Made by a program: the position numbers and the translations under genes
Origin: a virus
Lineage: Duplodnaviria > Caudoviricetes
Direction: 5' to 3' (one strand)
Virus record (IMG/VR): IMGVR_UViG_3300042807_000304
Location: 1-38,099 of that record
Length of the DNA stretch: 38,099 nt
Shown here: positions 18,058 through 36,969 of the stretch, one piece after another
Layout: each line of letters begins with the position of its first letter
How positions within the stretch are numbered: the stretch's first letter is position 1
The notes under the pieces: model-generated
What the model was told of the DNA's origin: nothing
What the model saw: only the letters and a program-made list of their open reading frames with translations
The model's database searches: none

Positions 18058-18109
18058 TGCTAGTTCGCCTCCTTAGGTAGGGGACAGGGACAGAAAGAGA
18101 TTTCGCCAT

Positions 18110-18511
18110 TTACGACTTATACTCTTCCAGTGTTTGCATAGAAGATTCCTCCCAGGCCTTGTCTGCCTTACGACGCATTGCATGAGCTTCCTCATCCTCT
18201 GCGTCCAGCATCGTGGCCCACACCTTTCCCAGTGTGTGTGCAAACGTCTTTCCTCGGGTTACCGCAACCTGTGATTTGAAGTTGGGGTAATCGAGAAACT
18301 TGATTGATTCGCTGACCCATGAATCGAAGTCAGCCTTGTGAATGATTACGCGGTATGGGTAATCGGAATACGCGTTGGTCGTGATTTCAACCTGGTGCTT
18401 GGCCTCAATTGGCTCAAGGCTTTGTCTATCGCGCGCGCGAACAACCAATAGGTCTGGGTTGTCCCGGTGTTGAACAGCGGATACGAATCCGGTCTCAGTA
18501 AATAGCCACAT
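18110..18511 (-). CDS. Conserved phage hypothetical (MWLFTETGFVSAV...VRAR...DYPYR...DYPNFK)
   Basis: Start moved to ATG 18511 behind GAAAGGA. Confidence 0.8.
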   Translation of the reverse strand: MWLFTETGFVSAVQHRDNPDLLVVRARDRQSLEPIEAKHQVEITTNAYSDYPYRVIIHKADFDSWVSESIKFLDYPNFKSQVAVTRGKTFAHTLGKVWATMLDAEDEEAHAMRRKADKAWEESSMQTLEEYKS

Positions 18512-18577
18512 GTGTCTTTCGTCCTTTCGTAATTTGGATACTGTAACAGGCATCTGCCTGTTTTTTAACTAGCTCGG

Positions 18578-18760
18578 CTAGTTGACGTCTAATGTGACGC
18601 CCTCGGGTAATTGGGTTAGAGCTTCATCGACTACATCCTCATAGCCCTCTTCCCAAAGAAGCTTGGACGCGTATCGAGCCGCGTCCGGTGAAACATACTG
18701 CACAATGGCAGCTTGGCCACCGCGCATTCCGGTGAGCTTGTAAGCAACTACATCGTCCAT
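18578..18760 (-). CDS. Hypothetical protein
   Basis: ATG 18760 with AAAGGTGG RBS; TGATACAAT upstream. Confidence 0.7.
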   Translation of the reverse strand: MDDVVAYKLTGMRGGQAAIVQYVSPDAARYASKLLWEEGYEDVVDEALTQLPEGVTLDVN

Positions 18761-18804
18761 GGTTCCACCTTTCGTGTATGTAGAAATTGTATCATCTGAC
18801 CCTC

Positions 18805-19374
18805 CTACTTCCCGAACTTCTTGCGGCACTCTGGGCCAAGCTGAAGCTCACGGCTCTTTGGGTCTGTTAGTTCAGCTCCACAGCTACCGCAGCAGCTGTA
18901 GATCTTGCCAAACTCACGGGCGTACTTGTATGGGTCCTGCGCGATGTGGTTCGCAATCAGGATGGCGTCGTCATTTGCCACGCGAGAACGGGTAAAACCG
19001 CCCAGTGAGCCGTGCAAACGGCGCATGTATAGATTTCCCATGTACTCACGGATTTCAATGAACAGGTAATCGCCTGTAAGCTTGGTTGACGCGAGGCTGA
19101 TGTCCAGCTCCTCGTTGGCGATTGCGTACTTAGATTTAGGTGCACCAGAAAGTGCTTCCTGAAGCTTGGTTCCCGCGCTACCTGGGACCTTTGTTGCGGC
19201 CTTTGGGAGCTTTAGCAGAACGTCGATGAGGTTCGATGCTGCCTTGCGGTCCATTAGAGCTAGTGCCGCACGGAATCCGGTGCGTGCCTCAGCTTCAAGC
19301 TCACGCTCATCAAGTAGTGAGTTGATAAAGGCTACCTGCTTCTCGCTAGGACCAAATAATGTCGCTGTTGTCAT
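18805..19374 (-). CDS. DUF6011-like Zn-binding protein
   Basis: C-terminal CGSCGAELTDPKSRELQLGPEC. Confidence 0.8.
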   Translation of the reverse strand: MTTATLFGPSEKQVAFINSLLDERELEAEARTGFRAALALMDRKAASNLIDVLLKLPKAATKVPGSAGTKLQEALSGAPKSKYAIANEELDISLASTKLTGDYLFIEIREYMGNLYMRRLHGSLGGFTRSRVANDDAILIANHIAQDPYKYAREFGKIYSCCGSCGAELTDPKSRELQLGPECRKKFGK

Positions 19375-19541
19375 TTTGTCTCCTTCTTGTTTACCTTGTC
19401 CGCCCAGCGGCGGGTGGTTTCCTCGAACTGGGCAAGAAAACCAAGCGCAAACATGCGCTGAGTGTGCTCGACCTTAGCTCGGTTCTTGCTTGACCCTGGC
19501 TTTGCGGCCTTTAGGACCTTGCGTGGTACGTATAGACTCAT
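19371..19541 (-). CDS. 56 aa hypothetical (MSLYVPRKVLK...)
   Basis: Manual ORF; AAGGAG RBS behind promoter 19567; ATGA overlap with the next gene. Confidence 0.75.
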   Translation of the reverse strand: MSLYVPRKVLKAAKPGSSKNRAKVEHTQRMFALGFLAQFEETTRRWADKVNKKETK

Positions 19542-19610
19542 TTGGTTCTCCTTCCTGTTGATAGTTCTATTATATCAGGTAGGTTCGAAGATTTGGAGTA
19601 TTTACATGAA

Positions 19611-19664
19611 TTAGCCCCGCCCCTAGCCCAATGAACAAGAAAGGAAGGCTAGGGACAGGGCTAA
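19611..19664 (-). terminator. 18 bp stem hairpin with 18 nt pyrimidine-rich loop (UUCCUUUCUUGUUCAUUG)
   Basis: ttagccccgcccctagcc ... ggctagggacagggctaa; G-U pairs fit the minus strand. Confidence 0.75.
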
Positions 19665-19666
19665 AC

Positions 19667-19837
19667 CTACTCGCGTGTGGCCAATAGACCCATGGTTATA
19701 CCTGCAAGACCCAGTGAAACGGCCAGTACGGGCGTCTCAGAGGCCGAGAAGGCCGCAATCACGGATGCTCCGGCTAGTACCGCGGCTAATACCGCAGGCC
19801 AGACGAGATCCCTGAGGCGTGACAGCCAGTCGGGCAT
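19667..19837 (-). CDS. 56 aa membrane protein (MPDWLSRLRDLVWPAVLAAVLAG...)
   Basis: Manual ORF with two hydrophobic segments. Confidence 0.65.
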   Translation of the reverse strand: MPDWLSRLRDLVWPAVLAAVLAGASVIAAFSASETPVLAVSLGLAGITMGLLATRE

Positions 19838-19839
19838 GG

Positions 19840-20142
19840 TTACTTGACCGGACGGGTACGGCCCTTTAGACGTGAGCTTGCGTCACGAATTGGGGTTCCG
19901 GACTCGTTGATAAGGCGGCGAGCCTTACCGTAGGTGATGCCAAGTTCCTTGGCTACCTCAACAACTGGCTTTCCAGTTGAGTAAAGCTGTGCTGCAGCTT
20001 GCGCGTTGACTTCGGCCATGATGGCTTTTCCTTTCGTAGTGTGTACTTTTGTTTTTGTTTCCTGAGGCTCGACTGGATTTGCATCCATCCAAGCTCGGCT
20101 CTTAGCGTGCAGAGCCTTTGCCTCGGCCAGCAGCGAGCTCAC
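19840..20142 (-). CDS. Small HTH DNA-binding protein (alternative start 20019)
   Basis: YSTGKPVVEVAKELGITYGKARRLI; strong RBS ACGAAAGGA before ATG 20019. Confidence 0.75.
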   Translation of the reverse strand: MSSLLAEAKALHAKSRAWMDANPVEPQETKTKVHTTKGKAIMAEVNAQAAAQLYSTGKPVVEVAKELGITYGKARRLINESGTPIRDASSRLKGRTRPVK

Positions 20143-20453
20143 GGCTGCTGCTTTCCAAGGATTTCCTTTACCGCGCGGAATACAACAGTGTTCCTCGGAA
20201 CGAAGTTGTTTTCGCTATGGCAGGCAAAGCATAGGTACTCATTACGGCGATGACCTGGGTCGCGAAACACCAGCTCATCTGAACCGCACTTATCACACGC
20301 TTGCTTGGTTGGGTTCTTGCGAGCCCAAGCGCGTGCATGTTCGGCGCACACGAGCTGTTCACCACGGTCGTACACCAGAACGTTTTGCTCATTGCAAACC
20401 GCGCAGGTGTCGTAGACGTAGATCTGCTCACGCTGAATGGTACCTTTGTCCAT
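20139..20453 (-). CDS. Cys-rich Zn-finger-like protein
   Basis: CxxC..CxxH..CxxC..CxxC. Confidence 0.75.
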   Translation of the reverse strand: MDKGTIQREQIYVYDTCAVCNEQNVLVYDRGEQLVCAEHARAWARKNPTKQACDKCGSDELVFRDPGHRRNEYLCFACHSENNFVPRNTVVFRAVKEILGKQQP

Positions 20454-20472
20454 GCTTTACCTTCCTGTAAAA

Positions 20473-20754
20473 CTATAATCCTCGACGGCGTCTTTTGTAA
20501 AACCGTGGTCCATGTTCTCTTGGACCAGGGCGACTTGGATAAACCGCGCCGAGTAACGCAAGTGAATTGTCTAGTCTCTCGCGATTGCGTGTTCGTTTGA
20601 ATAGAACGATACCTCCGATGATTAGACCTAACCCAGCCATTACGCCTAGGTGTAGATCAAGCATCAGTGCGTTGTGGATGTAGACTACCAACCACCAATC
20701 TTCAATTGACAGTGCGAAATACGCTTCGTGCATGTTTTGCCCTTTCATTAGCAA
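20473..20754 (-). CDS. Putative small membrane protein (start uncertain)
   Basis: Hydrophobic segment and basic tail; fills the gap. Confidence 0.5.
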   Translation of the reverse strand: MLMKGQNMHEAYFALSIEDWWLVVYIHNALMLDLHLGVMAGLGLIIGGIVLFKRTRNRERLDNSLALLGAVYPSRPGPREHGPRFYKRRRRGL

Positions 20755-20971
20755 AGTGGTCTTCAGCTACCGCAAGGCAGTGTCCTGCAAGTAGTAGCAA
20801 CGGAATGCAACCGCCAGCTGTAAGTAACACTGCTGCTGCAAACGCTTCCCAGCTTGGGAAGATGAAGAATGTTGATGCTGCGTACGGGAACCAGGCAGCT
20901 GCCACAAGCGCTAAACCTGCTGCGTAGCGACGGTACCTGTATCCTGCGAACTTGTTGATGTTTAGACTCAT
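20702..20971 (-). CDS. Membrane protein
   Basis: ATG 20971 behind GACGAAAGGA and promoter 21020; two TM-like helices. Confidence 0.75.
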   Translation of the reverse strand: MSLNINKFAGYRYRRYAAGLALVAAAWFPYAASTFFIFPSWEAFAAAVLLTAGGCIPLLLLAGHCLAVAEDHFANERAKHARSVFRTVN

Positions 20972-21036
20972 AGTGGGAAGTCCTTTCGTCTCTGTGTCCC
21001 AGGCTTTCACCTGATAGTACTATTATAACAGGTAGG

Positions 21037-21237
21037 TCAGGAAGATGCAGCCATTTCATCTACCGGTGTTTCTTCCTGAGCTTTACGGGTCTTCCGGTCT
21101 ACTCGCCGCGTAGAGATTTCACACTCCGCAAGCTTGTATCCCTTTGACTTGAGCCAGTCCTTGGCCAGCTGCTCGTTCATGAACTGTCCTACCCAGATTC
21201 CATCGGGCAGGTAGACGCTTACCATCTCGTAGTTCAT
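21037..21237 (-). CDS. Hypothetical (paralog-like to 22040-22180)
   Basis: ATGA coupling. Confidence 0.7.
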   Translation of the reverse strand: MNYEMVSVYLPDGIWVGQFMNEQLAKDWLKSKGYKLAECEISTRRVDRKTRKAQEETPVDEMAASS

Positions 21238-21359
21238 CGGTTCTTCCAGCTCTCGAACTCGTCCGCATCATCCGGGAGCTCGATTGGAAGTTTAGTTCCC
21301 AGCCAGCTTCCAACAGCGGCAGCGGCGAACACGATTACAAGTATGTAGAAGATACTCAT
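21234..21359 (-). CDS. Small single-TM protein
   Basis: MSIFYILVIVFAAAAVGSWLG. Confidence 0.6.
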   Translation of the reverse strand: MSIFYILVIVFAAAAVGSWLGTKLPIELPDDADEFESWKNR

Positions 21360-21363
21360 TGTT

Positions 21364-21582
21364 TTACCCAAACATCTCTGACCAGCAAGCTGGGTGATAA
21401 CCAGTCTTGAGCTGTTCACGGATTGGTGCTGGTGTATTTGGCAAACGCTCTTGAATCAAACCTGAACCATGTTCAAAGTTTATCCAGTCTGCGAAGGTTA
21501 GCTCGACTGTCCCAGTCTTACCGCACCAGGTACACATTGGAGTTTCCACCACGTAGATTTCGTTCATTAGGTCCTTTGTCAT
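21364..21582 (-). CDS. Hypothetical with CxxC/HxxC
   Basis: Behind promoter 21607 and GGAAGGAG. Confidence 0.75.
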   Translation of the reverse strand: MTKDLMNEIYVVETPMCTWCGKTGTVELTFADWINFEHGSGLIQERLPNTPAPIREQLKTGYHPACWSEMFG

Positions 21583-21627
21583 TTTGGCTCCTTCCGCCTG
21601 TTAGTACTATTATATCAGGTAGATCTT

Positions 21628-21807
21628 TTATTTGCCTGAATACTGAATGTAAGTGTAGGCAATTCGACTAAAGTTAGAAGAATGCTTTGTTCTTACTTGG
21701 CGAATAACTTTTTGTTCTGATGCCGAAGCACAAGCCTGAGCGTCTCTGTGGAATGCTGCACCTGCGGCAGGCTTGCCGCAGGAGCCACAATTGAGTTCTT
21801 TACTCAT
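21628..21807 (-). CDS. 59 aa hypothetical (MSKELNCGSCGKP...)
   Basis: Manual ORF; TAATG coupling. Confidence 0.6.
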   Translation of the reverse strand: MSKELNCGSCGKPAAGAAFHRDAQACASASEQKVIRQVRTKHSSNFSRIAYTYIQYSGK

Positions 21808-21947
21808 TAGTTTTTCTTCTTAGGTAGGTCGCGAACAATGAAAGGACCTTCTTGGTCTTCAGGGCTTAGGAACTCGCCTAAATCATTACATTTTTCATCT
21901 GGAGCGTGGCTGCCTAAGCACCAGTGTTTTTCTTGTTCTTTGTTCAT
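21807..21947 (-). CDS. 46 aa hypothetical (MNKEQEKHWC...)
   Basis: Manual ORF behind promoter 21987. Confidence 0.6.
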   Translation of the reverse strand: MNKEQEKHWCLGSHAPDEKCNDLGEFLSPEDQEGPFIVRDLPKKKN

Positions 21948-22039
21948 TTTGTCTCTTCTCTATCAACAACGGCTTTGTTGATAGTTCTATTATATCAGGT
22001 ATATGGAGTGGTACTCGGCAGGGGGTGGGGGGTGTTTCT

Positions 22040-22180
22040 TTACGGGTACTTGCTTGGGCCCATTTCGAGCCTGTAGTCGTTTATGTCCCATCCTTGCTCA
22101 GCTACCCACCGCACGCATACCTCCGCGTTGGCAAACTGAGCTACCCAGTTCCCAGCGGCATCGAACAGATGAACCCACAT
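22040..22180 (-). CDS. 46 aa hypothetical (MWVHLFDAAGNWVAQF...)
   Basis: TAATG coupling to the peptidase gene. Confidence 0.6.
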   Translation of the reverse strand: MWVHLFDAAGNWVAQFANAEVCVRWVAEQGWDINDYRLEMGPSKYP

Positions 22181-22776
22181 TACTTGCTCCTTGCTTTCTT
22201 TCCGTGCTGTGTCTTTACCACGATTGGCTGATTTGAGTAGGCGTCCCACATGCAGGCAACCTCAACGGAACGCCGCACGATGCGAGCTGCCTTCTCTGGC
22301 TCGTCCATAAGCTTTTCAATTCCAAGAGCTACCATCGCTCCAAGAGCTACGTCTCCACCTGAACCACTGTAGTAGATGTTTCGAACCTCACGGTCCCAAG
22401 AGTAGTCTTCAGAAATTGGATAGATAACTCCATTTACGATTACAAGAAGTGGCGAGTCCTGCGTTGCCGCATCACCTTCTGGCTTTGCATCGTAGCCAGC
22501 TTCGATAAAAGCATCGCGCAGCTGAGGAATGAACTTGCGTGTCATGAACTTATCAAGATTTGTGATGTTGCCGATTTCCGGCGGAGCTGGTGGAGTCCAA
22601 CCAAACTGAGCGATGTTGCCACCGCGCGAAGCTCCAGACACAGCAATGAGGTACGCACCATTTTGCACGACCTTTGGTGTTGCAAGATTCATGACACGAC
22701 CAGACTCGTCACTGGCTCGTGAATCGCAGCCAATGACTGCCCAACCATTTCCTTGGAATGCCGCAAGCGTGGTCAT
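22180..22776 (-). CDS. Ntn-hydrolase, HslV/proteasome beta-subunit-like peptidase
   Basis: N-terminal M-TT, IGCDSR, K, SG, GSGG..A.GA, A...D..S pattern. Confidence 0.85.
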   Translation of the reverse strand: MTTLAAFQGNGWAVIGCDSRASDESGRVMNLATPKVVQNGAYLIAVSGASRGGNIAQFGWTPPAPPEIGNITNLDKFMTRKFIPQLRDAFIEAGYDAKPEGDAATQDSPLLVIVNGVIYPISEDYSWDREVRNIYYSGSGGDVALGAMVALGIEKLMDEPEKAARIVRRSVEVACMWDAYSNQPIVVKTQHGKKARSK

Positions 22777-22833
22777 AAATCTCTCCCTATTAGGTATAGA
22801 TCATAAACCACACCTGCAACAGTCTAGGGCAGG

Positions 22834-23160
22834 CTAGGCAGGGTCGACGATGCTAATTGGAACAGTAATCTGGGCAGACTCTGGTCCTGATGGCGTCATG
22901 CGGACGAACCTACCTGTAGGTGCATCAAGTTTGACTACCAGCTTTACCTTCTTGCGTCCTACCACAGTTGCAGTATGACCGATGAGGTACCGCGTACCGC
23001 AGCTATTGTTGAACCGAACCTTGTCACCAATACCGAAGTCAGTGGTGGTTAGGCTGCCTCTGATTGAGTCAAGGCGGTGTTGAACCTTGGTGCTGATTTC
23101 ACCCAGGTTGGTGTCCAAGGCACCCGAGTCTATTTGCTCGAGGAGTGTCTTTATGTCCAT
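22834..23160 (-). CDS. Hypothetical with SH3/KOW-like C-terminus
   Basis: ATG 23160 behind ACGACGAAGGGA; FGIGDKVRF...ATVVG. Confidence 0.75.
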   Translation of the reverse strand: MDIKTLLEQIDSGALDTNLGEISTKVQHRLDSIRGSLTTTDFGIGDKVRFNNSCGTRYLIGHTATVVGRKKVKLVVKLDAPTGRFVRMTPSGPESAQITVPISIVDPA

Positions 23161-23203
23161 GTCGTGTCCCTTCGTCGTTGTTAAATCTATTATATCAGGT
23201 AGA

Positions 23204-23470
23204 TCAGTTCTCGTCTGACCACATGGTCTCGCGTAGTGCGTGTTCGTATTGGTCTCCTCTGTAGGAGTTTGAACCAAAGCTGATATCCTCATTCTGAATG
23301 AGTCTATCGAGACTTAGCACCGCAGTGTGTCCCTCAGCCTCAAACATAATAACGAGCTTGACATCACTCTCGGTTGGGTCATCAACCAGCGCAACCTGGA
23401 ACGGCATTCCTGCCACACCATTTCGGTGGAAGTCCATGTCGATGATGGTTAGGTTCTTTAGTTCACTCAT
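23204..23470 (-). CDS. Conserved phage hypothetical (HRNGVAG.PF...YRGD)
   Basis: ATG 23470 directly after the upstream stop. Confidence 0.75.
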   Translation of the reverse strand: MSELKNLTIIDMDFHRNGVAGMPFQVALVDDPTESDVKLVIMFEAEGHTAVLSLDRLIQNEDISFGSNSYRGDQYEHALRETMWSDEN

Positions 23471-23471
23471 G

Positions 23472-23627
23472 TTATACGTCTGCTTCCTGGGCAGCTCTCT
23501 GTAGAGCTTCCGCGTTGGCACAATCATAGCAAATCTTTTCAACCCGGTCAATGACACCGAGTAAGAATGCAGCTGTTCCCGAGTAGACTAGACTTTCAGT
23601 AGTACCGCATGTTCCGCACTTGTTCAT
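23472..23627 (-). CDS. 51 aa CxxC...CxxC protein
   Basis: Manual ORF with GAAAGGA RBS. Confidence 0.7.
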   Translation of the reverse strand: MNKCGTCGTTESLVYSGTAAFLLGVIDRVEKICYDCANAEALQRAAQEADV

Positions 23628-23687
23628 TTGTTTTCCTTTCCTCGTTGGTGGGGTGGGCAGTTTTGAGAGTTGCCCAGCTCCACGAAA

Positions 23688-23930
23688 CTAAACTGTGTAA
23701 GCTACCTCGTAGCCCTTTTCCAGTTTTTCCTGAACCTTCATCGCAGCGAACTGACGAGCGTAGTGAGCGTCGAAGAAGTTCTGTACCGCAGTCTGGCGGG
23801 ATTCCTTTTCAGCCATTCCCCAAACTGTGCGAACCTTGGTTCCATCGAGGATAACCTCGTAAACCTTTTTCTTACCAACCGCGCCGCGTACTCCGTCGCT
23901 TGTCTTTAGTAAACACCATTTCTTGTTCAT
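23688..23930 (-). CDS. WGR-domain-like protein
   Basis: KVYEV..V...WG....Q...F...A...K..EKLEKGY. Confidence 0.7.
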   Translation of the reverse strand: MNKKWCLLKTSDGVRGAVGKKKVYEVILDGTKVRTVWGMAEKESRQTAVQNFFDAHYARQFAAMKVQEKLEKGYEVAYTV

Positions 23931-24028
23931 GTTTCGTCCTTTCGTCGTTTTACCAAGTTTCCTTGATAGATCTATTATATCAGGTCGACTCCACTTTAGG
24001 GCACGAATTGGAGTATGTTATCAATTTG

Positions 24029-24436
24029 TTACTTAGTGGAGTACAGCTCTGAAAACAGCTCGCGGACATAAACCTTTGGGAGTTCAAGTGCCGCACGTGG
24101 GATTTCCTTTGAGAGGTACACCCAGCTTGTGGCATTCCCAAAGAACGCCGCGCTGTGGTCAGTCCCTGCTTCCCAGAGCCCTACGTCAGTCTTAGAGGTT
24201 TTGATTTCCCAGACGTGAATCGAATCATGGGGAACCAGGTTGAAGGTTATCTCGGGCATCAGAGGGTTTGGCTCGTGGTGAACGTGGTCAAGTAAACGGA
24301 ACCACATGAATTGAAGAGCATCGCCTGGAGTTTCGGCCGCGTAGATCTCGCCGAAGTTTGATTTGAGTCCATCAGCGTTGATGCTACCCAGCACACACTC
24401 GGGTGCCGCGTGGTAAAGCTTCTTAGGAACTGTCAT
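24029..24436 (-). CDS. Putative ADP-ribosyltransferase-fold (Tpt1/KptA-like H-Y) protein
   Basis: LYHAA...LGSINADGL...IYAA...A..F...WVY..EIP. Confidence 0.6.
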   Translation of the reverse strand: MTVPKKLYHAAPECVLGSINADGLKSNFGEIYAAETPGDALQFMWFRLLDHVHHEPNPLMPEITFNLVPHDSIHVWEIKTSKTDVGLWEAGTDHSAAFFGNATSWVYLSKEIPRAALELPKVYVRELFSELYSTK

Positions 24437-24479
24437 TTTGTCTCCTTGCGTCATTGTGTATCTATTATATCAGGCGACT

Positions 24480-24689
24480 CTACTTGGGTTGGATTGGTCC
24501 TTTGTCTCCCATGTACACCATGTCGATCTTTGCGTTCTCTGCTGTTCGCTTTGCATCCGCAACAGCTTTGATCTTTAGCTCGGCTGCCGCAGCCTCGGAG
24601 ATTTCAACTTCATGCTCAACGTAGCGATGTTTCGTCAGGTCAAACACAACCAGGTAGCACTCCGGGCAGCTGGGGAATTCTATTGTCAA
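24480..24689 (-). CDS. Hypothetical with C2H2-like motif
   Basis: CPEC...H...H; AAGGAG RBS. Confidence 0.7.
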   Translation of the reverse strand: MTIEFPSCPECYLVVFDLTKHRYVEHEVEISEAAAAELKIKAVADAKRTAENAKIDMVYMGDKGPIQPK

Positions 24690-24847
24690 TCTGTCTCCTT
24701 CTGTTCTTCAAGAGCTCTCCGCTTCTTTTCAGAGCGGGAGCGATTTCGCTTTGTGCGTCTGTCTTCAAAGATTTGGAACTTCTGGTTTTGGACATACAGC
24801 CCAGGCGTCCCCCGAAGGAGACGCTTGAGCTGACTGTCCTTTTTCAC
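24686..24847 (-). CDS. 53 aa basic protein (...DRRTKRNRSRSEKKRRALEE)
   Basis: Manual ORF; GTGA and TTGA overlaps. Confidence 0.65.
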   Translation of the reverse strand: MKKDSQLKRLLRGTPGLYVQNQKFQIFEDRRTKRNRSRSEKKRRALEEQKETD

Positions 24848-25050: not shown

Positions 25051-25120
25051 TTGAGCTCCTTCCGTCTTGATGTTTCTATTATATCAGGTAGGTGTGACAA
25101 TTTGGAGTAAATATGAGAAA

Positions 25121-25152
25121 AGACCCAGGCAACTTCCCCTGTGCCTGGGCCT
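25121..25152 (-). terminator. Intrinsic terminator
   Basis: agacccaggca...tgcctgggcct with a T-run on minus. Confidence 0.7.
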
Positions 25153-28956: not shown

Positions 28957-28987
28957 ATGTCTTTCCTTCTGTTTGTATTTTGGGTGT

Positions 28988-29032
28988 CTGGTAGGGAGGG
29001 ATACTTTGACGGAAGGATTACCTCCCCACCAG
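28988..29032 (-). terminator. 3'-UTR hairpin (12 bp stem) with 21 nt loop containing AUCCUUCCGUCA
   Basis: CUGGUGGGGAGG/CCUCCCUACCAG stem right after the vWA gene stop. No U-tract follows, so terminator function is uncertain. Confidence 0.7.
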
Positions 29033-29039
29033 AACTCTA

Positions 29040-30821
29040 TTAGGCAGCCGCGCGAGTACTCACTTTCATGATTGCCGCAGTCGCAGCCTTGCCAATTTCT
29101 GTTGCCGCACTTGCTGGGTCGAGCGTTCCTTCAAGAACAACTGCGTCAGTTCCACGAGCAAGATGTGTTGCCATGCCACCGCGTTCGAATGGTAGCCACA
29201 GAACTGCAACACCTGTTTCCTGACAACGCTTCAACCACTTCTTTGCGTGTTCCTGTTCGTCAGGTGTGTAGTGTCCATCACTCACAACGACAAGCAGACG
29301 AGCACCTGTGCCCTGCAGTAACTGCAGTGAACCATCAAGTGCCTTGAATGCTTTGTTGAACTTTTCAGTTCCATCAGGAGCAGTGTACACGTTGACCTCT
29401 GAGAGATGCTGTCCTGGCTTGAGTGTAGGGAACACTTCGGAACCATAGTAGACCATCGCGCACTTCGCCTGAGTCCTCTTAGCGGCTTCTGACATTACCC
29501 ATGCAGTCACTGCCATTGGTTCCATTGCGTATCCCATTGAACCTGAGATGTCGACCATCACACCAACTGTGAGTGTTGGGTCATCAGTGTGCTTGCGTAC
29601 TGTGCGCTTCCATGGTTCTGCCTGTGACATAACACCCTTTGATTTGAGTGCTGCGTTCTGCACAATCGCGCGAGTGCGTAGACGTCCTGGAGGAAGAACT
29701 GACTTGATGTCAGTCTCTGAGCGTTCGCGATACTTTGCGCGCTCTAGCATTGTTGCAACCTTTACTGCAGCCGCACGCTCTGGTCCTGTTGGTAGACGCT
29801 TCTCACGAAGACGTGAACTAGTCTTTGAGAATGGTTGAGGTCCTGTGCCCTTTGAGAAGATGTCGTTGGCAGCGTCGCGATTTTCCTTCGCTTCCTTTGA
29901 CGCCTTCGACTTTGTGGTAACGATCTCTGCCCACTCTTCACTTGTCTGCTGATCGCCAAGTTCGTCCTGCGCGCCAATCGCTGCTACGTCTGCTGCTTCG
30001 CCAAGTGCGTCCATCAACTCTTCGATGAACTGTTGCATCTCTGGTGTTGGCTGCTCAGATACTTCACCGCGCTCTGTGGCTGCATCCTCGACAAGCTTTA
30101 CCCACTCGCGTGCAAGATCATACAGTGGCTTTGGGTTGTAGTGCTCATCGTGCATTTGGAAACGATTCCACACTGAACGAAGTTTTGACATTAGGTCTTC
30201 GCCAATGAATGAGTCAAGTAGATCTGCGATTGGTTCGACGTCCTCACGCTCAAGCACGTCTGCATCAACACGAGCAAGTGTTAGTCCTGCAAGATGTGCA
30301 GCCGCACGAGTAGATGTAAGTTCGCCAATGGTATCGGCAACGTCTGCAATCACGATTTCAAGTGCACACGCACGCAGGAACCCACGATTTGCGGGCATGT
30401 CATTGACACCTGCTGCTTCGATTCGTGTCTCTTCAAGAAGGTTGATTGCTTGAAACTCTTTGTCAGATAGCTCACGCATTGCATCAACTAATGACCAACG
30501 TGAGTACTTTGCATGTAGTGCCTCATGAAAGATTGCGCCTGAGGCTTTAGGCCACTCAAACTGTGTGGTGCGCTCAGTGAGGTCACCAATAGCTTCTGGG
30601 GTTAGACCCTTGCCGAACGCAACGTCAACATTGACTTCGATTTCAGCGAGCTGTGGATTGAAACATGCAGGTGCAGGTCCACCAGCTCCTGGTCCAACGT
30701 AAGCAACAAGATCACCGCGTGATGACCAGTCACTTGCAACGCGACCAATCTGTGCGCCAACCTTGAGCCATTCCATCGGAGTGGCTTCCGCGCGAGTCGC
30801 GCGAGTTCTAATGTGTTCCAT
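29040..30821 (-). CDS. vWA (MIDAS) domain protein with N-terminal HExxH region, CobT-like partner of the AAA+ ATPase
   Basis: VDISGSM, GT, VVVSDG; FHEALH...NLLEETRIE. ATG 30821 behind TGACGGAAGGA. Confidence 0.88.
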   Translation of the reverse strand: MEHIRTRATRAEATPMEWLKVGAQIGRVASDWSSRGDLVAYVGPGAGGPAPACFNPQLAEIEVNVDVAFGKGLTPEAIGDLTERTTQFEWPKASGAIFHEALHAKYSRWSLVDAMRELSDKEFQAINLLEETRIEAAGVNDMPANRGFLRACALEIVIADVADTIGELTSTRAAAHLAGLTLARVDADVLEREDVEPIADLLDSFIGEDLMSKLRSVWNRFQMHDEHYNPKPLYDLAREWVKLVEDAATERGEVSEQPTPEMQQFIEELMDALGEAADVAAIGAQDELGDQQTSEEWAEIVTTKSKASKEAKENRDAANDIFSKGTGPQPFSKTSSRLREKRLPTGPERAAAVKVATMLERAKYRERSETDIKSVLPPGRLRTRAIVQNAALKSKGVMSQAEPWKRTVRKHTDDPTLTVGVMVDISGSMGYAMEPMAVTAWVMSEAAKRTQAKCAMVYYGSEVFPTLKPGQHLSEVNVYTAPDGTEKFNKAFKALDGSLQLLQGTGARLLVVVSDGHYTPDEQEHAKKWLKRCQETGVAVLWLPFERGGMATHLARGTDAVVLEGTLDPASAATEIGKAATAAIMKVSTRAAA

Positions 30822-30869
30822 TTTGTATCCTTCCGTCATTTGGATAGTTCTATTATATCAGGTGGGTGA

Positions 30870-30899
30870 GAGGGAAGCCACACCCAAGAGGCTCCCCTC
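30870..30899 (-). terminator. 3'-UTR hairpin with loop UCUUGGGUGU
   Basis: gagggaagcc/ggctcccctc stem; two more small hairpins at 30904-30938. Confidence 0.65.
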
Positions 30900-30935
30900 C
30901 CAACCTGGTTTGCCAGGATTCTAGGGAAGGCATTC

Positions 30936-31919
30936 CTAGATCTTGGCTGGACGGCATTCCTCGCCGAACACCCTAGTGAACACGTCCGCAACGACGGGGC
31001 GATCGAGTTCAGGTGCTGCAGCAAGTAAGTTCGCGATTGCGAACTTGCTGCCGAAGGTCTTTGATAGATCTCTAAAGGCAAGCAACTCACGCATTTGTGG
31101 TGCCCAGGATACTTCACCTGTCTGTTGCTTCTTTGCGAGATTTTGTGCAGCAGTGACGATGGTTGCAGGGGAACCAAGCTTTTTAGCAAGACCCCAGTCA
31201 GTTGTCATCTCTGCATGAATTTGGAAACGTGATAGCAATGCCTCACTGAGTCGCACACCTGGTGCGTTTGGGTTTGTCGCCGCAATGACGTAGAACCCAT
31301 CCTTTGCTTTGACAGTCCCGCGTTCTGGGTTTGCTGTCACAACAAGTTCGCGTCGTCCATCCATAAGTCCATATGCAAGTGATAGAACCTTTGGATCAAT
31401 CAGACCTACCTCATCAATGAGAAATGGTGTACCTGAGATGGCTGCCTTGACAAGTGGACCATCTTCCCAGATGAAGCCACCTGATGGGGTTTGCACGTAT
31501 CCACCAACGAAGTCTGCAACTTCAGTGTCGCCTGTACCAATGATGGTGTGTAGTTCTTCACCGAATGCTGCTTCAACAAGTGCAGTCTTACCGCAACCTG
31601 GCGCACCATACAGTAGAACGTATTGGCTAGTTTCACGTGCCTTACGGAGAACCTCAACGTCGTTGTGTTCACCCCAGACTCGTGAGAAGTAGTCGTCACC
31701 ATTTGGACGCTTGTACTTATCTGAACCTACAAGTGCATCTGCTGATATCACTGGAACTGCCTTCTTTGGTGCTGTCGCGCGAGCTGTTGCTCTTCCTGGG
31801 ACTGGCATCAACTCATCTAAAGATGATGCAAGATCCGAGTTGACAGACTGAGTTACCGCACTAGCGATGACTCCTGTAAGCCCCGGATGGAGCTTATCGT
31901 AATCTATGGTTACTGACAT
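30936..31919 (-). CDS. MoxR/CobS/CbbQ-family AAA+ ATPase
   Basis: Walker A GAPGCGKT, Walker B FLIDE, sensor AATN, arginine finger ALLSRF. Confidence 0.92.
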   Translation of the reverse strand: MSVTIDYDKLHPGLTGVIASAVTQSVNSDLASSLDELMPVPGRATARATAPKKAVPVISADALVGSDKYKRPNGDDYFSRVWGEHNDVEVLRKARETSQYVLLYGAPGCGKTALVEAAFGEELHTIIGTGDTEVADFVGGYVQTPSGGFIWEDGPLVKAAISGTPFLIDEVGLIDPKVLSLAYGLMDGRRELVVTANPERGTVKAKDGFYVIAATNPNAPGVRLSEALLSRFQIHAEMTTDWGLAKKLGSPATIVTAAQNLAKKQQTGEVSWAPQMRELLAFRDLSKTFGSKFAIANLLAAAPELDRPVVADVFTRVFGEECRPAKI

Positions 31920-31967
31920 TGGGTGTCCTTTCGTCGTTGGGTGTTGATAGATCTATTATATCAGGTA

Positions 31968-32429
31968 CTACTCTGCGAACAGAGATTCCCCGAAGTTGAG
32001 TGCCCTGCGGCAACGTGTGATTCGACCAAGAATCTTGTAAGGAGTCTTTGAGAGACGAATGTCCTCGAGGTCTTCTTGAGTTACCTCGACAACAATTGGT
32101 TGCTTGTACAGTTGCCAACCTGAAGTTACGAGTTGGTTGAACAAGTTATCTGTGTACGAGATGCGATCCGCAACTGTTGCAAGTGCGTGCTCTTTACCGA
32201 GCGCAACAAGTTTATTTGTCATTGGGTCGATCTCACTGCGGAACACTGTGCTCATCTGCTTCCAAGTCTTACGTGGACTTGAACTTGAGATGCGACGACG
32301 ATAGGTAGTGATTGGCACATACTTACCTGAAGCGTTGATTGCCTCAGGTGTGATGATTACCTGGTTCGTGCTACCTCCATGTCGAAACTCTAAGTAGAGA
32401 GCTTTTCCGACAACCTTTGTATCTGTCAT
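31968..32429 (-). CDS. Hypothetical protein
   Basis: Behind promoter 32463 and the extended SD. Confidence 0.8.
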   Translation of the reverse strand: MTDTKVVGKALYLEFRHGGSTNQVIITPEAINASGKYVPITTYRRRISSSSPRKTWKQMSTVFRSEIDPMTNKLVALGKEHALATVADRISYTDNLFNQLVTSGWQLYKQPIVVEVTQEDLEDIRLSKTPYKILGRITRCRRALNFGESLFAE

Positions 32430-32470
32430 GTTATTTCCTTCCGTCGTTTTGGATGTGTAGTTCTATTATA

Positions 32471-32764
32471 TCAGGCGACTTTGAAGTTCGGCAGCCGAAC
32501 TGTCACCATCATCTGTGGGTACTCAAGATCGAAGGACTCAGTCTTGGTGACCCAGACTTCGTTGTCATCTTCGTCGTAGTCGTCAACTACCTTGTAGGTA
32601 ATCTCTAGACCTTCGTCGCCATGCTTGACTTCGATCAGTTCGATGTCAGTGTAGGTGACAAACTCGCTTGGGTTCTGTCGTGCATACTCAATTAGTGTCT
32701 CCATGTCTTCGTACATGAAGTCCTCGCACTTGATTATGTCCGCGCAGTATAGTCGTTCACTCAT
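32471..32764 (-). CDS. Acidic hypothetical; stop inside promoter motif
   Basis: TGA at 32471. Confidence 0.75.
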   Translation of the reverse strand: MSERLYCADIIKCEDFMYEDMETLIEYARQNPSEFVTYTDIELIEVKHGDEGLEITYKVVDDYDEDDNEVWVTKTESFDLEYPQMMVTVRLPNFKVA

Positions 32765-32802
32765 TTAGCGTCCTTTCGTATTTCGTCGTTAGTACTATTA
32801 TA

Positions 32803-33018
32803 TCAGGCAGGTGTGTCATCTTCGAGTATTGAAACACCGAAGTCGAGTTCAATACCGCGATTTCTTTCGAATGCCTTTGGCAGGTCAGAGATGTTCATCT
32901 CGTCTTCCTCACACTTGCGCATGAGTTCCTTTGCCTCTTCTTCATTGGCTGCCTCGAACCAGACCTGGTTCATTGAGACCTCGTTGAATCTAAATGTAAA
33001 TGTCTTCATGTCACTCAT
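32803..33018 (-). CDS. Acidic hypothetical; stop inside promoter motif
   Basis: TGA at 32803. Confidence 0.75.
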   Translation of the reverse strand: MSDMKTFTFRFNEVSMNQVWFEAANEEEAKELMRKCEEDEMNISDLPKAFERNRGIELDFGVSILEDDTPA

Positions 33019-33370
33019 AGTAGTGTCCTGTTCCTGTTGACTTGATCAGATCGACGACTGACTCAGCGTCCGCATCGATTTCTTCTTCGTACTCGTCAAA
33101 GTCGTCCTCGCGCTTTTGGACAGACCATGACGCAACGAGCACTGGGTGCTTCGCGTCTTTATTCTTTGCGTGGTACCACCAAAAGGAGATGCCATCGTAC
33201 TCAAAGGTGTCGTGGGCTGGGTCTTCAATAGTTTCCCACTTGAAGGCTTCACCTTCGATCTTGACATTTTTTGTTTTCCAATTTACGGAGTAGCCATACT
33301 CGCCATCCTCATTTGTGAGTTCGGCAAAGATCGCTTCCATCTTGCTTGGGTCGTAAACGTAGTTGTCCAT
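33011..33370 (-). CDS. Acidic hypothetical
   Basis: Behind promoter 33395. Confidence 0.75.
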   Translation of the reverse strand: MDNYVYDPSKMEAIFAELTNEDGEYGYSVNWKTKNVKIEGEAFKWETIEDPAHDTFEYDGISFWWYHAKNKDAKHPVLVASWSVQKREDDFDEYEEEIDADAESVVDLIKSTGTGHYYE

Positions 33371-33397
33371 TTGTGTCCTTCCGTCGTTATGGATCTA

Positions 33398-33703
33398 TTA
33401 TATCAGGTCGCGCCTGACAACTTCAGGTTCTACAACTTTACCTTCGCGGGTTGGGCAGTAGTCAACCTTGTGTGACTTTGAGTGATTTGGGAAGAGTGAG
33501 TCCTTGCTCCAGTATTCAACGTATGTGTATACTGTGTGCTGCCATACTCCATTGTCAAGTGCAGAGTTGGTGACTGATTCACCGCAGACCTCACACTTGC
33601 CAAACCAGAGACGATTGTCCTTGCGGAATCCATCTGCTGGATCTAAAACCTTGAAACCATTTCCGATTCCAAGTTCGCGTACCATTTCGAATGTTATTTC
33701 CAT
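33398..33703 (-). CDS. Hypothetical with CxxC; stop inside promoter motif
   Basis: TAA at 33398. Confidence 0.75.
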   Translation of the reverse strand: MEITFEMVRELGIGNGFKVLDPADGFRKDNRLWFGKCEVCGESVTNSALDNGVWQHTVYTYVEYWSKDSLFPNHSKSHKVDYCPTREGKVVEPEVVRRDLI

Positions 33704-33738
33704 TTGGGTGTCCTTCCGATCAATAGTTCTATTATATC

Positions 33739-33782
33739 AGGTAGGTGTGACAGAAAGAGGTAAAAAACTGCCACACCTACCT
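33739..33782 (-). terminator. 15 bp hairpin overlapping the upstream edge of promoter 33729
   Basis: aggtaggtgtgacag ... ctgccacacctacct. Confidence 0.7.
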
Positions 33783-33793
33783 AATTCCTCTGC

Positions 33794-34456
33794 CTAGGAC
33801 AGAAGTTTCTTGAACTGGGCCAGCTTGGCATTCGCCTCGTTGAGCTGAGCCTGGAGATCCTTGGTACGTTCCGCAACGATCTTCTCAATCAGGTAGTCGA
33901 TTGCGTTGTCCTGGTTTCGATTGATGTCCGGAGCGCCGATCGGCTTTGTTACCTCGATCTTCTTTCGTGGACGTCCAGCTCGGGACTTGGCGCCTGCGCC
34001 AACATCAAACAACTTGTAGCCATCAACCACGGACGCAACAGTGCGAGTACGAGGTGATGAGCCGGAGTTGAACAGATATGCTGGCTTAGGTGATGTGTTC
34101 GCACCATTGGCGCGAAGCTTACGCTCAGTTGGAGTTTCCAAGTGAACTGCGATCTTGTGTGCTAGGACGAGCTGTTCTAGCGCATACTTGACTCGGTGGT
34201 CAACAAGTTCGATGTTGGCTTCATTCTTAAGATACATCTGCATCTCTTGAGTTGAAACCGGCTGCTGTAATTCTTCAAGGGCTACCTGAATGATGTCCTG
34301 CAGACTTAACTGTTCGCTGTGGCGATCTGCTAGAAACTTCTTGAACCCTGGGTTATTTGCATTGTTATGCTTTGTAGTAGTGGGTGATGTCATAGGTGTA
34401 GTTATTGTCGCTTTCTTGTAGGGCGTGATTCTCGCCATGTCTCGTATCTTTGTCAT
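33794..34456 (-). CDS. Putative DNA-binding protein (winged-helix-like core, AT-hook-like GRPRKK, C-terminal coiled coil)
   Basis: IIQVALEELQQPVSTQEM...VKYALEQLV; AGRPRKK. First gene of the early array. Confidence 0.65.
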   Translation of the reverse strand: MTKIRDMARITPYKKATITTPMTSPTTTKHNNANNPGFKKFLADRHSEQLSLQDIIQVALEELQQPVSTQEMQMYLKNEANIELVDHRVKYALEQLVLAHKIAVHLETPTERKLRANGANTSPKPAYLFNSGSSPRTRTVASVVDGYKLFDVGAGAKSRAGRPRKKIEVTKPIGAPDINRNQDNAIDYLIEKIVAERTKDLQAQLNEANAKLAQFKKLLS

Positions 34457-34559
34457 GATGTCCTTCCGTCAGAGCTGGTCTCTAACTGTTTGATTATAAC
34501 AGGCGCATGTGACATTTGCGGATTATGAAACACCGGTGTTTGGGATGGGGCTGTTTTGA

Positions 34560-34633
34560 TGTCTACACGGAAGTTAGACCGGATCGAGCTCGATGCCCGA
34601 TCGGATCAGCCGGTTTGTCTACACGGAAGTTAG
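34560..34633. repeat. 18 bp direct repeat TGTCTACACGGAAGTTAG x2
   Basis: 34560-34577 and 34616-34633, intergenic. Confidence 0.85.
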
Positions 34634-34642
34634 GCCAGGAGT

Positions 34643-35413
34643 TCAGGCCGTCACTCGAAAGCTACCGGTCTCACGGCCTAGCCGTGAAAGGCTTGACTCA
34701 TCTGGCATGCCCGTTACGTCAGCTCCGGCGTATCCGATCATCCGTTGCCATTGCGAATACGCTGATACGGTCAGGCCGTCCCAGCTTCCGTTCGTCGCGT
34801 TACGCAGGCCCGTCTTAACTGAGAGCGCAACCTGTACCCGTTCGATATGGGAATTACGTTTCCCAGGCCTCAAATTAGAAAGCTTGATCTCGGGCAGGCC
34901 GTCTACCTCAGGAGCTGGTCTCTCCCTACCAGGCCTGAAGTCAGGCCGCCCGAAACCAAGGATCTCATGACGTGAGCGTACCCGTTCGTACACGCCGTCA
35001 AAGCTTTTTATGTTTTGCTTGGGCAGGCCGCTATCCGTCATGCCCTCGATGACTCTTACCAGGCCTCGCCTGTTCCAGTCCGTCACCTCGATGACTATTC
35101 CGACGTGTCCCTGGCTAAAGGATTCAGCGCCCGTTGGGAAGTTATAAAAGACGATGTCCCCAGGCCGTGGTCTCGCGTGCCACCGTCTGGCCCGTATAAA
35201 CTCGGCCAGGCCGCTTGTTGTATTTACGCAGGCTGGAATAGTGATGCCCGTCTCGCGGGCCACAACGTCAATGAAGGCACCGTTCCATGCCAAGCCTTGA
35301 TATCCGACCAGGCCACCGTAATAAGAGTCCGTGCCCGTCCGGGAACGATACCCGAGGTGCGTCCGTGCCTGAGCTATAAAGTCAGCCCGTCTGTCATTTG
35401 TCTTTTCGGCCAT
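34643..35413 (-). CDS. CHAP-like amidase fold plus PG-binding domain (endolysin-like; canonical Cys replaced)
   Basis: AWNGAFI, PRPGDIVFY, GHVGIV, IEGMT, ILGFGRP; C-terminal VQVAL..GSWDGLTVSAYSQWQ. Confidence 0.8.
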   Translation of the reverse strand: MAEKTNDRRADFIAQARTHLGYRSRTGTDSYYGGLVGYQGLAWNGAFIDVVARETGITIPACVNTTSGLAEFIRARRWHARPRPGDIVFYNFPTGAESFSQGHVGIVIEVTDWNRRGLVRVIEGMTDSGLPKQNIKSFDGVYERVRSRHEILGFGRPDFRPGRERPAPEVDGLPEIKLSNLRPGKRNSHIERVQVALSVKTGLRNATNGSWDGLTVSAYSQWQRMIGYAGADVTGMPDESSLSRLGRETGSFRVTA

Positions 35414-35422
35414 GCCGTAATC

Positions 35423-35602
35423 CTAAACCGTTGAGGCAGCTTTTAGAATAACGAGCTTATATAGCCCGTCAGCGAGAGTCTCGGCCTCGTTAAGCCTGGC
35501 CGTTAACCGAATGTGCTCAATCCGCGAGGCCGCCAGCTCGATGTCGTTGTTAAGTCTGTCCGCATGTTCCCGTGCCGCGTGATATAGATCCTCGATGTTC
35601 AA
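35423..35602 (-). CDS. 59 aa helical hypothetical (MNIEDLYHAAREHADRL...)
   Basis: Manual ORF; TTGA coupling. Confidence 0.65.
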   Translation of the reverse strand: MNIEDLYHAAREHADRLNNDIELAASRIEHIRLTARLNEAETLADGLYKLVILKAASTV

Positions 35603-36525
35603 TCGGTGTCCGTCGCCTTCTCTTCATTGGTCTCCTCGATTATCACTGCGTCACTGACTTCAGAGTCGATTGTAACACCCTGAATGATCAAATCGGTCGA
35701 ACTCTCCAAGGCTTCAGGTGCAAGCCGTGCAAGCCGTTCGGCGATAATTTGCGCCGCAGGCCGTCCGTCAACAACCTTGGCTGTCACGTCGAACTCCTGG
35801 CCGCCACGGATTCCTGCACGGTCGAGGATCTCGGTGGAAGCCTTAAGCTTCACCGGTTCCGAGGCCGCGTTTAACATTAGGTCCTCAAGCATGTCAACCG
35901 CGTACGGTGCTGCCTGGGTAAGCTTTTGCCGTGCCCGTTCGATGTCCTCGCCTGGCCGCTTCTTAATACTTCTTAAGTGAACACGGCAGAGGCCGTCATC
36001 CTTAGGCCGTCCGCTACTCCAAAGCATGCATCGGAGGCCGTCGTCTTTCACGGCCCGACATCTGTGTGGAAGCGCCGTGGCCTTCTTGGTTTCCGTGGCT
36101 ACTGGCTCGTCTTGTTCCCGAACCCACATCTTGGTAGCACCAAGAACCCAAGGCGGAACGAGGTAGTCCGATGCCGACTCGGCTAGAAGTTCCAAACCGG
36201 TCAGGTAGTCTGAGTTTGGGCGGTCGCCGTCAACCATGATTGGTTTCTTCTCGGCTAGAGACAACATCCGTCTCTCAGTGGCCATCGCCTGTGACCGCGC
36301 CTGGATCAGGCCGGTCGGAACACCGTTGGTTGAGTAGACAGTATCCCAGCCCATCTTTGCACCGCGCAGGATCTTACGGTTCTCGAAGGTGTCCTCGCAG
36401 ACGCCGCGTTCGGCCTCAACGATTCCGAGCTCTGAAAGATCTGGCCGCAGGTTAACTGGGTCATCAATGCGGACCTCGGGGATCTCGTCCTCGGCGTCGC
36501 CAAATAGGTTTACGTCTGTACTCAT
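35599..36525 (-). CDS. Putative terminase small subunit / DNA-binding protein
   Basis: C..K..G.RC......LCRVH Zn motif followed by AAPYAVDML..L......VKLKASTEILDRAG, a helix pattern common in TerS-like proteins. Confidence 0.55.
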   Translation of the reverse strand: MSTDVNLFGDAEDEIPEVRIDDPVNLRPDLSELGIVEAERGVCEDTFENRKILRGAKMGWDTVYSTNGVPTGLIQARSQAMATERRMLSLAEKKPIMVDGDRPNSDYLTGLELLAESASDYLVPPWVLGATKMWVREQDEPVATETKKATALPHRCRAVKDDGLRCMLWSSGRPKDDGLCRVHLRSIKKRPGEDIERARQKLTQAAPYAVDMLEDLMLNAASEPVKLKASTEILDRAGIRGGQEFDVTAKVVDGRPAAQIIAERLARLAPEALESSTDLIIQGVTIDSEVSDAVIIEETNEEKATDTD

Positions 36526-36556
36526 GATGAGACTATAGTATCTTTAGAAATGAAAG

Positions 36557-36606
36557 GAGACGGACACCACATCTCCGGGGAGAGGACTGGATGCGGTGCC
36601 CGCCTC
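36557..36606 (-). terminator. 17 bp stem terminator with CU-rich loop CAGUCCUCUCCCCGGA
   Basis: gagacggacaccacatc/gatgcggtgcccgcctc; G-U pairs on minus; followed by CUUUCAUUUC. Confidence 0.75.
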
Positions 36607-36693
36607 GTTCTGACTCAAGTAACCATCACCTGCACGGGCGACGTCACTTGAAACTTAAAGCGTCGCTGTGTTGTGAGGTAGGTTAGGTTCGGT

Positions 36694-36942
36694 CTACTTC
36701 TTTTTCTTCGGGGCTGTCTTCTTAAGCGCCTCGGTTGCGATTGCCTGAGCAACGCGGCCGAAGGCTGGATCCTTCGAGTTTAGGAAGCGGATTGCCACCG
36801 GGACCACTGCCGCGATTCCAGCGTGAATAAGGACCACAGGGTCCGTTTCACCAGCTGTGTATAGAGCAATGACCGCCGCTAGGAAGCTGCGTCCCCAGGA
36901 GGCTGCCATAGCCTTGACCTGTGGTGTAAGTAGTTTATCCAT
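36694..36942 (-). CDS. Holin
   Basis: Two TM helices, SWGRSFLAA...RFLNSKDPAFG, basic tail; downstream of the M23 endolysin. Confidence 0.75.
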   Translation of the reverse strand: MDKLLTPQVKAMAASWGRSFLAAVIALYTAGETDPVVLIHAGIAAVVPVAIRFLNSKDPAFGRVAQAIATEALKKTAPKKKK

Positions 36943-36969
36943 GTTCTCTCCTCTTGCAGACACGTAGCC

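Follow-up and report, generated by a model that had tools for sequence, protein, structure and literature searches.

We analysed a stretch of 38,099 nucleotides (nt) from a tailed-phage record (IMGVR_UViG_3300042807_000304; hereafter the window), in which two neighbouring minus-strand genes, encoding an AAA+ ATPase and a vWA-domain protein, are each followed by a predicted hairpin with a loop that can pair with the leader of the same gene. The complementarity of these elements, their covariation with the leaders, their position and their gene specificity are evident when the window is compared with related phages. The phage family keeps the pairing and rewrites both of its sides repeatedly, which is strong comparative evidence of selection. 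Natural pairing between the 5' and 3' untranslated regions (UTRs) of bacterial mRNAs is known from a few single genes; here it is found on one phage module.

Two of seven proposed matches stand out in the window

A first-pass annotation of the window had listed seven 3' elements complementary to the leader of their own gene and proposed that they form a candidate fold-back system of translational shut-off. All seven matches exist. Those following the vWA gene, the AAA+ gene, the 34456 gene, the 18511 gene, the WGR gene (23930) and the 20019 operon were checked by script, as was the Shine-Dalgarno (SD) sequence of the putative holin gene (36942), whose complementary loop was read and folded. 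The vWA and AAA+ matches held up against controls and in relatives, but the other five behaved like chance matches. Over the 44 genes of the window, the cognate helix averaged 5.45 bp versus 5.20 bp for non-cognate pairs, and 5.24 versus 5.17 bp once AAA+ and vWA were left out. The vWA 12-mer is the sole 12-bp match in the window (0 of 1806 non-cognate pairs). The main confounder of the window matches is a leader sequence, GACGRAAGGA, that many early genes share. When accessibility was included, the own leader ranked 1st of 43 for vWA (-16.5, versus -16.4 for the next leader) and 3rd of 43 for AAA+; the corresponding ranks were 35/43 for the 34456 gene, 14/44 for the 18511 gene, 26/44 for the holin gene, 17/43 for the WGR gene and 12/44 for the 20019 operon.

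Helices of at least 8 bp occurred in 0 of 30 relatives for the 34456 gene, in 2 of 17 distinct loci for the 18511 gene (5.65 versus 5.35), in 4 of 23 relatives for the holin gene (none at the SD) and in 0 of 20 for the WGR gene. For the 20019 operon the count was 2 of 22 relatives (5.68 versus 5.53), after two loci lacking a start call and two lacking a second gene had been dropped. The 3' portion of the 34456 element sits in a stem in the predicted fold, and folding yielded no stable hairpin after the 18511 gene (z +0.88).

Loops and leaders covary in related phages

Relatives were collected by an ATPase scan, of which the best 80 of 121 were kept; 59 were distinct, giving 60 loci with the window included. 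Genes were called with our own caller, which agreed with the earlier call of the AAA+ start in 58 of 60 loci, and 1,934 genes were compared with leaders of the same locus. The helix measure was the longest perfect pairing of the AAA+ leader with its own 70-nt 3' region. In the 60 loci the cognate AAA+ helix was 8.0 bp, compared with 6.0 bp for swapped partners (0/20,000 permutations), while direct repeats, taken as a control, hardly differed (5.7 versus 5.3). Perfect pairing with the own leader over 8 bp or more was present in 38 of 59 loci for AAA+ (9% for other leaders of the same locus) and in 44 of 56 for vWA (17%), and among the families in the 1,934-gene test only these two stood out. 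Against a within-locus null the values were 8.07 versus 5.74 bp for AAA+ and 9.21 versus 6.12 bp for vWA, with 0 of 10,000 permutations reaching the observed value in either case. The signal persisted in representatives below 70% identity (AAA+ n = 14, vWA n = 38) and, for vWA, also below 60% (n = 24).

The pairing favours the own leader, which was strictly the best of the locus in 15/59 (AAA+) and 19/56 (vWA) loci, where about 2 would be expected. Upon swapping with the leader of the nearest relative, the own leader was better, tied or worse in 24, 29 and 6 loci for AAA+ and in 30, 17 and 9 for vWA. Among the remaining leaders of the locus that bear a promoter, 83% (AAA+) and 81% (vWA) paired worse. 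The paired segments fall into 18 (AAA+) and 9 (vWA) sequence classes without a 7-mer in common. On a quick vWA tree, adjacent branches carry different matched pairs, such as L071 (GGGAATAGGAA) and L073 (GATAGTAAGG), L037 and L015, or L039 and L061/L062. Within the vWA stem, 9 of 11 pairs have changed in a compensatory way in 14 close relatives, around a constant loop core. The proposal that the 3' element changes with its own leader is thus borne out by many separate compensatory changes for AAA+ and vWA, but not for the other five genes.

Anatomy of the AAA+/vWA module

In the window the promoter motif, open reading frame (ORF) and hairpin of these minus-strand genes are colinear on one putative transcript. 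The extended -10 motif of the AAA+ gene (31955..31965) is followed by a leader (31919..31944; -12.5 kcal/mol) in which two ACACCCAA targets flank GACGAAAGGA, one upstream of the SD (31944-31937) and the other formed by the spacer and the A of AUG (31926-31919). The ATPase (327 amino acids, 30936..31919) is MoxR/CobS-like, with matches to Pfam AAA_5 (E 7e-19) and AAA_3 and to PHROG 16448 and 249; the label MoxR follows from these families. Its 3' hairpin (30859..30907; predicted fold -36.5 kcal/mol, z -2.2) presents UUGGGUGU at 30887-30880 within a loop at 30889-30880. The vWA gene has its own extended -10 motif (30852..30862) and a leader target, UGACGGAAGGAU (30827..30838), that spans -17 to -6 and covers the SD; its 3' hairpin (28987..29033; predicted fold z -4.4) carries the 12-nt complement to the ribosome-binding site (anti-RBS, 29018-29007) in a large loop at 29020-29000. 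The 593-residue product (29040..30821) matches Pfam VWA_CoxE at E 0.0014, under the curated cut-off, and has an N-terminal HExxH motif (HEALH in the window; HEAMH in L003, which also has DISGS), so far as sequence motifs tell a likely metallopeptidase-vWA co-chaperone. An AAA_5/AAA_3 ATPase gene thus adjoins a vWA-domain gene, as in MoxR AAA+/vWA pairs, the vWA match lying below the Pfam cut-off. No other early-region gene of the window is as long as these two.

Across the relatives, the vWA stem is stable, begins a median of 8 nt from the first stop base and encloses a large open loop. The vWA helix is centred at -17 to -7 and overlaps the SD in 44 of the 48 loci with at least 7 bp. The AAA+ targets are distributed differently: of 52, 28 precede the SD, 20 share bases with it and 4 cover the spacer or AUG. 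Complementarity of the 3'-UTR to the gene's own SD region, the arrangement known from icaR, is therefore present for vWA (44/48) and for a part of the AAA+ loci (20/52). The best-matching AAA+ element starts at most 7 nt from the stop, and would mask the SD, in 14 of 60 loci. Elements sit in regions predicted to be unpaired (0.83 versus 0.45; 0.66 versus 0.37), and the stems have a predicted mean stability of about -28 kcal/mol with open loops. Stem G-U pairs are found mainly on the mRNA strand (130 versus 14; 72 versus 37), the strand on which the stem boundaries were picked.

Upstream of AAA+ lies a conserved gene for a protein of 153 amino acids (family 1, 31968..32429), with an extended -10 motif (CCTGATATAAT, 32465..32475) and a leader (32436..32456) that fits both loops: ACATCCAA (32456-32449) pairs with the AAA+ loop at -9.7 kcal/mol with one G-U, and GACGGAAGGA (32445-32436) pairs with the vWA loop over 10 bp. 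A homologue precedes AAA+ in Microbacterium phages, and in the relatives the gene is almost always upstream of AAA+. By leader offset, the AAA+ 3' region reaches at least 8 bp with its own leader (0) in 64% of cases, with the upstream leader (-1) in 47% and with others in 2-18%. Because no 3' hairpin follows the 153-residue gene (fraction 0 among 56 loci), its cistron and that of AAA+ likely share one message. The protein gave no significant Pfam or PHROG match, no Atlas match and no Foldseek hit at E<=0.001; its structural model is confident (pLDDT 94), and comparison by VIA gave only weak fold matches, the best at Z 6.0, among them WGR domains (4.6-5.4) and CYTH-like folds.

The hairpins do not have the form of canonical intrinsic terminators: a U-tract follows only 3 of 58 AAA+ and 5 of 40 vWA hairpins. 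Termination without a U-tract occurs in actinobacteria and is conceivable here. The -10 motif is absent for 34 of 55 genes after vWA and, as U-tracts are also rare, read-through is likely, and the primary transcript need not stop at the hairpin.

The element is restricted to the module

In nine relative genomes (G001-G009 without the last 3 kb of G009; G010 was left out), our caller found 1,200 genes, 752 of them with a 3' gap. AAA+ and vWA genes reached 8 bp in 15 of 17 cases, compared with 39 of 735 other genes (5.3%; null 3.5%), and no further family was consistently high. Since covariation also fails for the other five genes of the window, the element is, on this comparison, specific to the AAA+/vWA module, and a genome-wide shut-off system is unsupported.

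Among annotated phages, DSL-LC01 has a 13-bp match at vWA and only 6 bp at AAA+. In the cultured Microbacterium phage Pumpernickel, the AAA+ loop matches over 11 bp the leader of gene 226, a homologue of the 153-residue gene; this leader contains CAACGACAAGG. Sixama has one 8-bp match, inside the coding sequence of the next gene, and in Microbacterium phage Zooman the hairpin is absent. Microbacterium phages A3Wally and Cece are ambiguous, the loop fitting the upstream leader over 7 and 8 bp and the downstream rIIA-like leader over 7 and 9 bp, respectively. In four loci of Microbacterium phages (L085, L087, L089, L091) the vWA 3' hairpin keeps a GU/CCCCGCA-type loop, for which no partner was seen in the stretches searched.

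Two observations concern another gene family. In a minus-strand gene for 471 amino acids (L154, in G009), a 15-nt perfect inverted repeat links leader and stop codon, and in G001 the 3' region of one member of its family matches the leader of the upstream gene over 14 nt.

Phage, host and other features of the early region

The 38-kb window is a fragment of the phage record (G000) and carries terminase, portal, M23, CHAP and NlpC/P60 genes. By their AAA+ and vWA proteins, its nearest annotated relatives are the metagenome-assembled Actinomycetia phage DSL-LC01, for which a host has been predicted (PMC10611076), and cultured Microbacterium and Gordonia phages; because of this proximity we infer an actinobacterial host. 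An extended -10 motif, CCTGWTATAAT(AG), recurs 19 times on the minus strand between 18.5 and 34.5 kb; several copies come after TACTCCAAA, and each is followed by a short A/C-rich leader. We take the motif to be a promoter on the basis of its TGnTATAAT consensus; the copies would then give mostly short early units. Rfam covariance models run against the window matched a tRNA alone at E<=1, and the hairpins match no curated family. The tRNA-Gln(CTG) (12990-13062, minus strand) follows the terminase. Two plus-strand genes run counter to the general direction, a methyltransferase (15707-16324) and a gene for 96 amino acids (16622-16912) with its own early-type promoter at 16581.

Several further hairpins were noted. 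The loop at 19629-19646, assigned by the first-pass annotation to the 20019 leader (-10.5), slightly favours the downstream 19541 leader (-12.7). As a feature distinct from the fold-back elements, in 9 of 21 distinct loci (L188, L190, L191, L193-195, L198, L201, L202) an 11-13-nt anti-RBS stands after an operon of a helix-turn-helix gene and a small gene, just upstream of the next -10 box. It pairs with the RBS of the gene past the next promoter, with two different downstream genes and several sequence variants, and, to judge from this layout, would silence the downstream gene on read-through RNA only. T4 e and soc are subject to comparable read-through-only silencing. As a general trait, anti-RBS upstream of promoters was not found in 532 leaders (4.75 versus 4.75). 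The hairpin after the putative holin gene (36545-36610) keeps its CCUCUCCCC loop on differing stems without covarying with the leader; this loop is conserved by sequence in L010, L017, L019, L021, L023 and L047. Likewise, the hairpin at 25121-25150 after the 25439 family keeps a GGGGAAG/GGAGAAG loop (L005, L006, L007, L021, L035, L041, L047). Kissing of this G-rich loop (~25130) with a C-rich loop at ~26300, complementary in the window and in L049, was rejected as unsupported: where both genes are present, the G-rich loop is mostly retained in the relatives but faces a different partner loop.

Discussion

From the position of the target at the SD and from precedent, we favour a model, with a probability of about 0.58, in which the tail of each mRNA folds back in cis after synthesis of the hairpin, reduces initiation and hastens decay. 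Strong early promoters would start mRNAs with short leaders, on which ribosomes could load while the 3' end is still to be made. After transcription of the hairpin, the nearly free 5' end could wind onto the open loop to form a long-range H-type pseudoknot. The vWA loop would mask the SD, and the shorter AAA+ loop the start codon, the SD or a C/A-rich stretch that precedes it, often affecting both cistrons of the message shared with the 153-residue gene. Re-initiation would then probably drop and decay accelerate, capping the early pulse in which a chaperone-peptidase machine is made. The first-pass annotation had suggested that fold-back leaves a burst of co-transcriptional translation only. 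This is probably too strong: because a distal 12-nt anti-SD lowered protein by 44% in Bacillus subtilis (PMC12697547), the analogy suggests damping rather than complete shut-off.

Several points weigh against fold-back inhibition in cis. Sequence alone does not fix the sign of the effect. Fewer than 8 perfect bp are found in 21 of 59 AAA+ and 12 of 56 vWA loci, and the element was not seen at the distant AAA+/vWA or CobS loci checked in three cyanophages and seven Gordonia/Brevibacterium phages, or behind the vWA gene of four Microbacterium phages. Comparison of G-U with A-C in the long-range duplex did not separate the two strands: mismatches are too few, as the duplexes are nearly pure Watson-Crick. 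More than half of the AAA+ targets (28/52) lie upstream of the SD, and in the B. subtilis hbs mRNA 5'/3' pairing is reported to stabilise the message (PMC5737220). The vWA loop is moreover not exclusive to its leader. It pairs over 11 bp with the 34456 leader and over 10 bp with four more in the window, owing to the GACGRAAGGA sequence common to many early leaders, and over at least 8 bp with 27% of the other promoter-bearing leaders in the relatives.

This last point would fit action in trans, in which the stable hairpins outlast decay of their mRNA as 3'-derived small RNAs, repress the early genes with shared leaders and so time early expression. The very stable stems and open loops agree with such a role, and the 27% figure, with the near-equal energies of the own and next-best window leaders, lends it some plausibility. 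We nevertheless consider it unlikely. In L037, L071, L072 and L073, whose own leader is unlike the common motif, the loop has changed along with that leader; an equally good match among the other leaders of the locus is missing in L037, L071 and L072, and 1 of 29 gives one in L073. The preference of AAA+ loops for the own and upstream leaders, and the 81% of other leaders that pair worse than that of vWA, also speak against a target set of shared leaders.

We are just as doubtful about a protective closed loop, in which pairing of the two ends would deny RNase J or E access to the 5' end, or retain terminating ribosomes close to the start, and thereby stabilise or boost the mRNA. In its favour, many AAA+ targets lie 5' of the SD (28/52), near the presumed 5' end, the hbs interaction restricts cleavage (PMC5737220), and AAA+ and vWA are the longest early genes of the window. 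However, a vWA helix over the SD core would hinder initiation, and other long genes with a 3' gap show no signal (9/138, versus a null of 3.7%).

A more speculative extension of the cis model, which we would not expect to hold, is a switch governed by ribosome traffic. As the anti-RBS is near the stop (the vWA median of 8 nt; the AAA+ element within 7 nt in 14/60 loci), each terminating ribosome might pull the tail away from the start site. The mRNA might then be active only as long as ribosomes keep completing it and lock when host translation falters, and freed hairpins might then silence early genes with shared leaders. If true, large phages would time and sense their early phase without the help of a protein. 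That the matches have no RNA function, with C/U-rich loops meeting purine-rich leaders by chance or inverted copies serving as DNA sites, accounts well for the 34456, 18511, holin and WGR cases and agrees with the absence of a strand signal from the near-pure Watson-Crick duplexes, but for AAA+ and vWA is already disfavoured and very improbable, given the within-locus permutations, the RNA-type covariation of the stems and the 18 and 9 segment classes without a common 7-mer, which a DNA-binding protein of fixed sequence preference would presumably not permit.

Fold-back in cis suggests a protein-free means of limiting early expression and points to tight control of dosage or timing of the phage MoxR-vWA machine, which is widespread and unexplained. 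The element is testable because cultured Pumpernickel carries one version and can serve as test system; it also offers a compact part for synthetic expression control.

The gene pair itself has been seen before. A MoxR AAA+/metallopeptidase-vWA pair of the same type in group 2.2 jumbo phages was proposed to be a chaperone-peptidase system (PMC7824862); the available text on it mentions no RNA element, and the pair studied here stands among genes with early promoters. In the literature searched, which covered few subscription papers, no phage report of a fold-back element was found, and MoxR is unmentioned in the main text of Weinberg 2017 (PMC5737381), whose supplement could hold such a motif.

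The first-pass annotation had invoked hok/sok. In hok/sok (PMC3868564) and Helicobacter pylori aapA3 (PMC6733600), pairing of the 3' end of the finished mRNA with its 5' region is linked to translational silence, and the direction of the fold-back is shared. Otherwise the phage messages differ. The phage ORFs encode the ATPase and the vWA protein instead of a small toxin, and the leaders are predicted to fold weakly (-4.6 and -3.4 kcal/mol), which would leave the SD unsequestered during transcription; because of these weak folds the nascent phage mRNA, unlike toxin mRNAs, looks translatable. A search for an antisense antitoxin, covering TATAAT-type promoters, found no plus-strand TATAAT near the AAA+ or vWA leaders. 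We therefore rejected a type I toxin-antitoxin identity, on the missing toxin ORF and the weakly folded leaders.

Other systems resemble single aspects. The 14-bp 5'/3' interaction of hbs is a perfect helix of similar length beside a 3' hairpin, but its pairing site lies 5' of the RBS and cleavage by RNase Y is limited by it, whereas the phage vWA helix covers the SD (PMC5737220). In B. subtilis reporters, distal anti-SD 8-12-mers, hundreds of nt downstream of the RBS with which they pair, lower mRNA and protein: an 8-mer at +467 reduced the half-life from 11.2 to 1.7 min, and the 44% loss of protein was caused by a 12-mer more than 500 nt away (PMC12697547). Such sequences are described there as depleted from natural genes; the phage element is kept and covaries. 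GcvB, a trans-acting small RNA of enteric bacteria, silences ACA enhancers by base-pairing to C/A-rich sequence immediately 5' of an SD (PMC3879156), as many AAA+ loops would do, the phage leaders being putative enhancers.

The closest counterpart is the 3'-UTR of Staphylococcus aureus icaR, which is proposed to block initiation and to feed RNase III (PMC3868564). There, too, a pyrimidine-rich 3'-UTR motif is complementary to the SD of its own mRNA, and cis versus trans action is left open in the account available. The phage element differs in being part of a hairpin no further than about 70 nt from the stop, where the icaR UTR is long, and in occurring on two linked genes and having been rewritten many times; it is known here from sequence alone. 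With its gene-specific pairing kept by compensatory change at AAA+ and vWA, the phage element would, by likeness rather than by experiment, work as icaR does.

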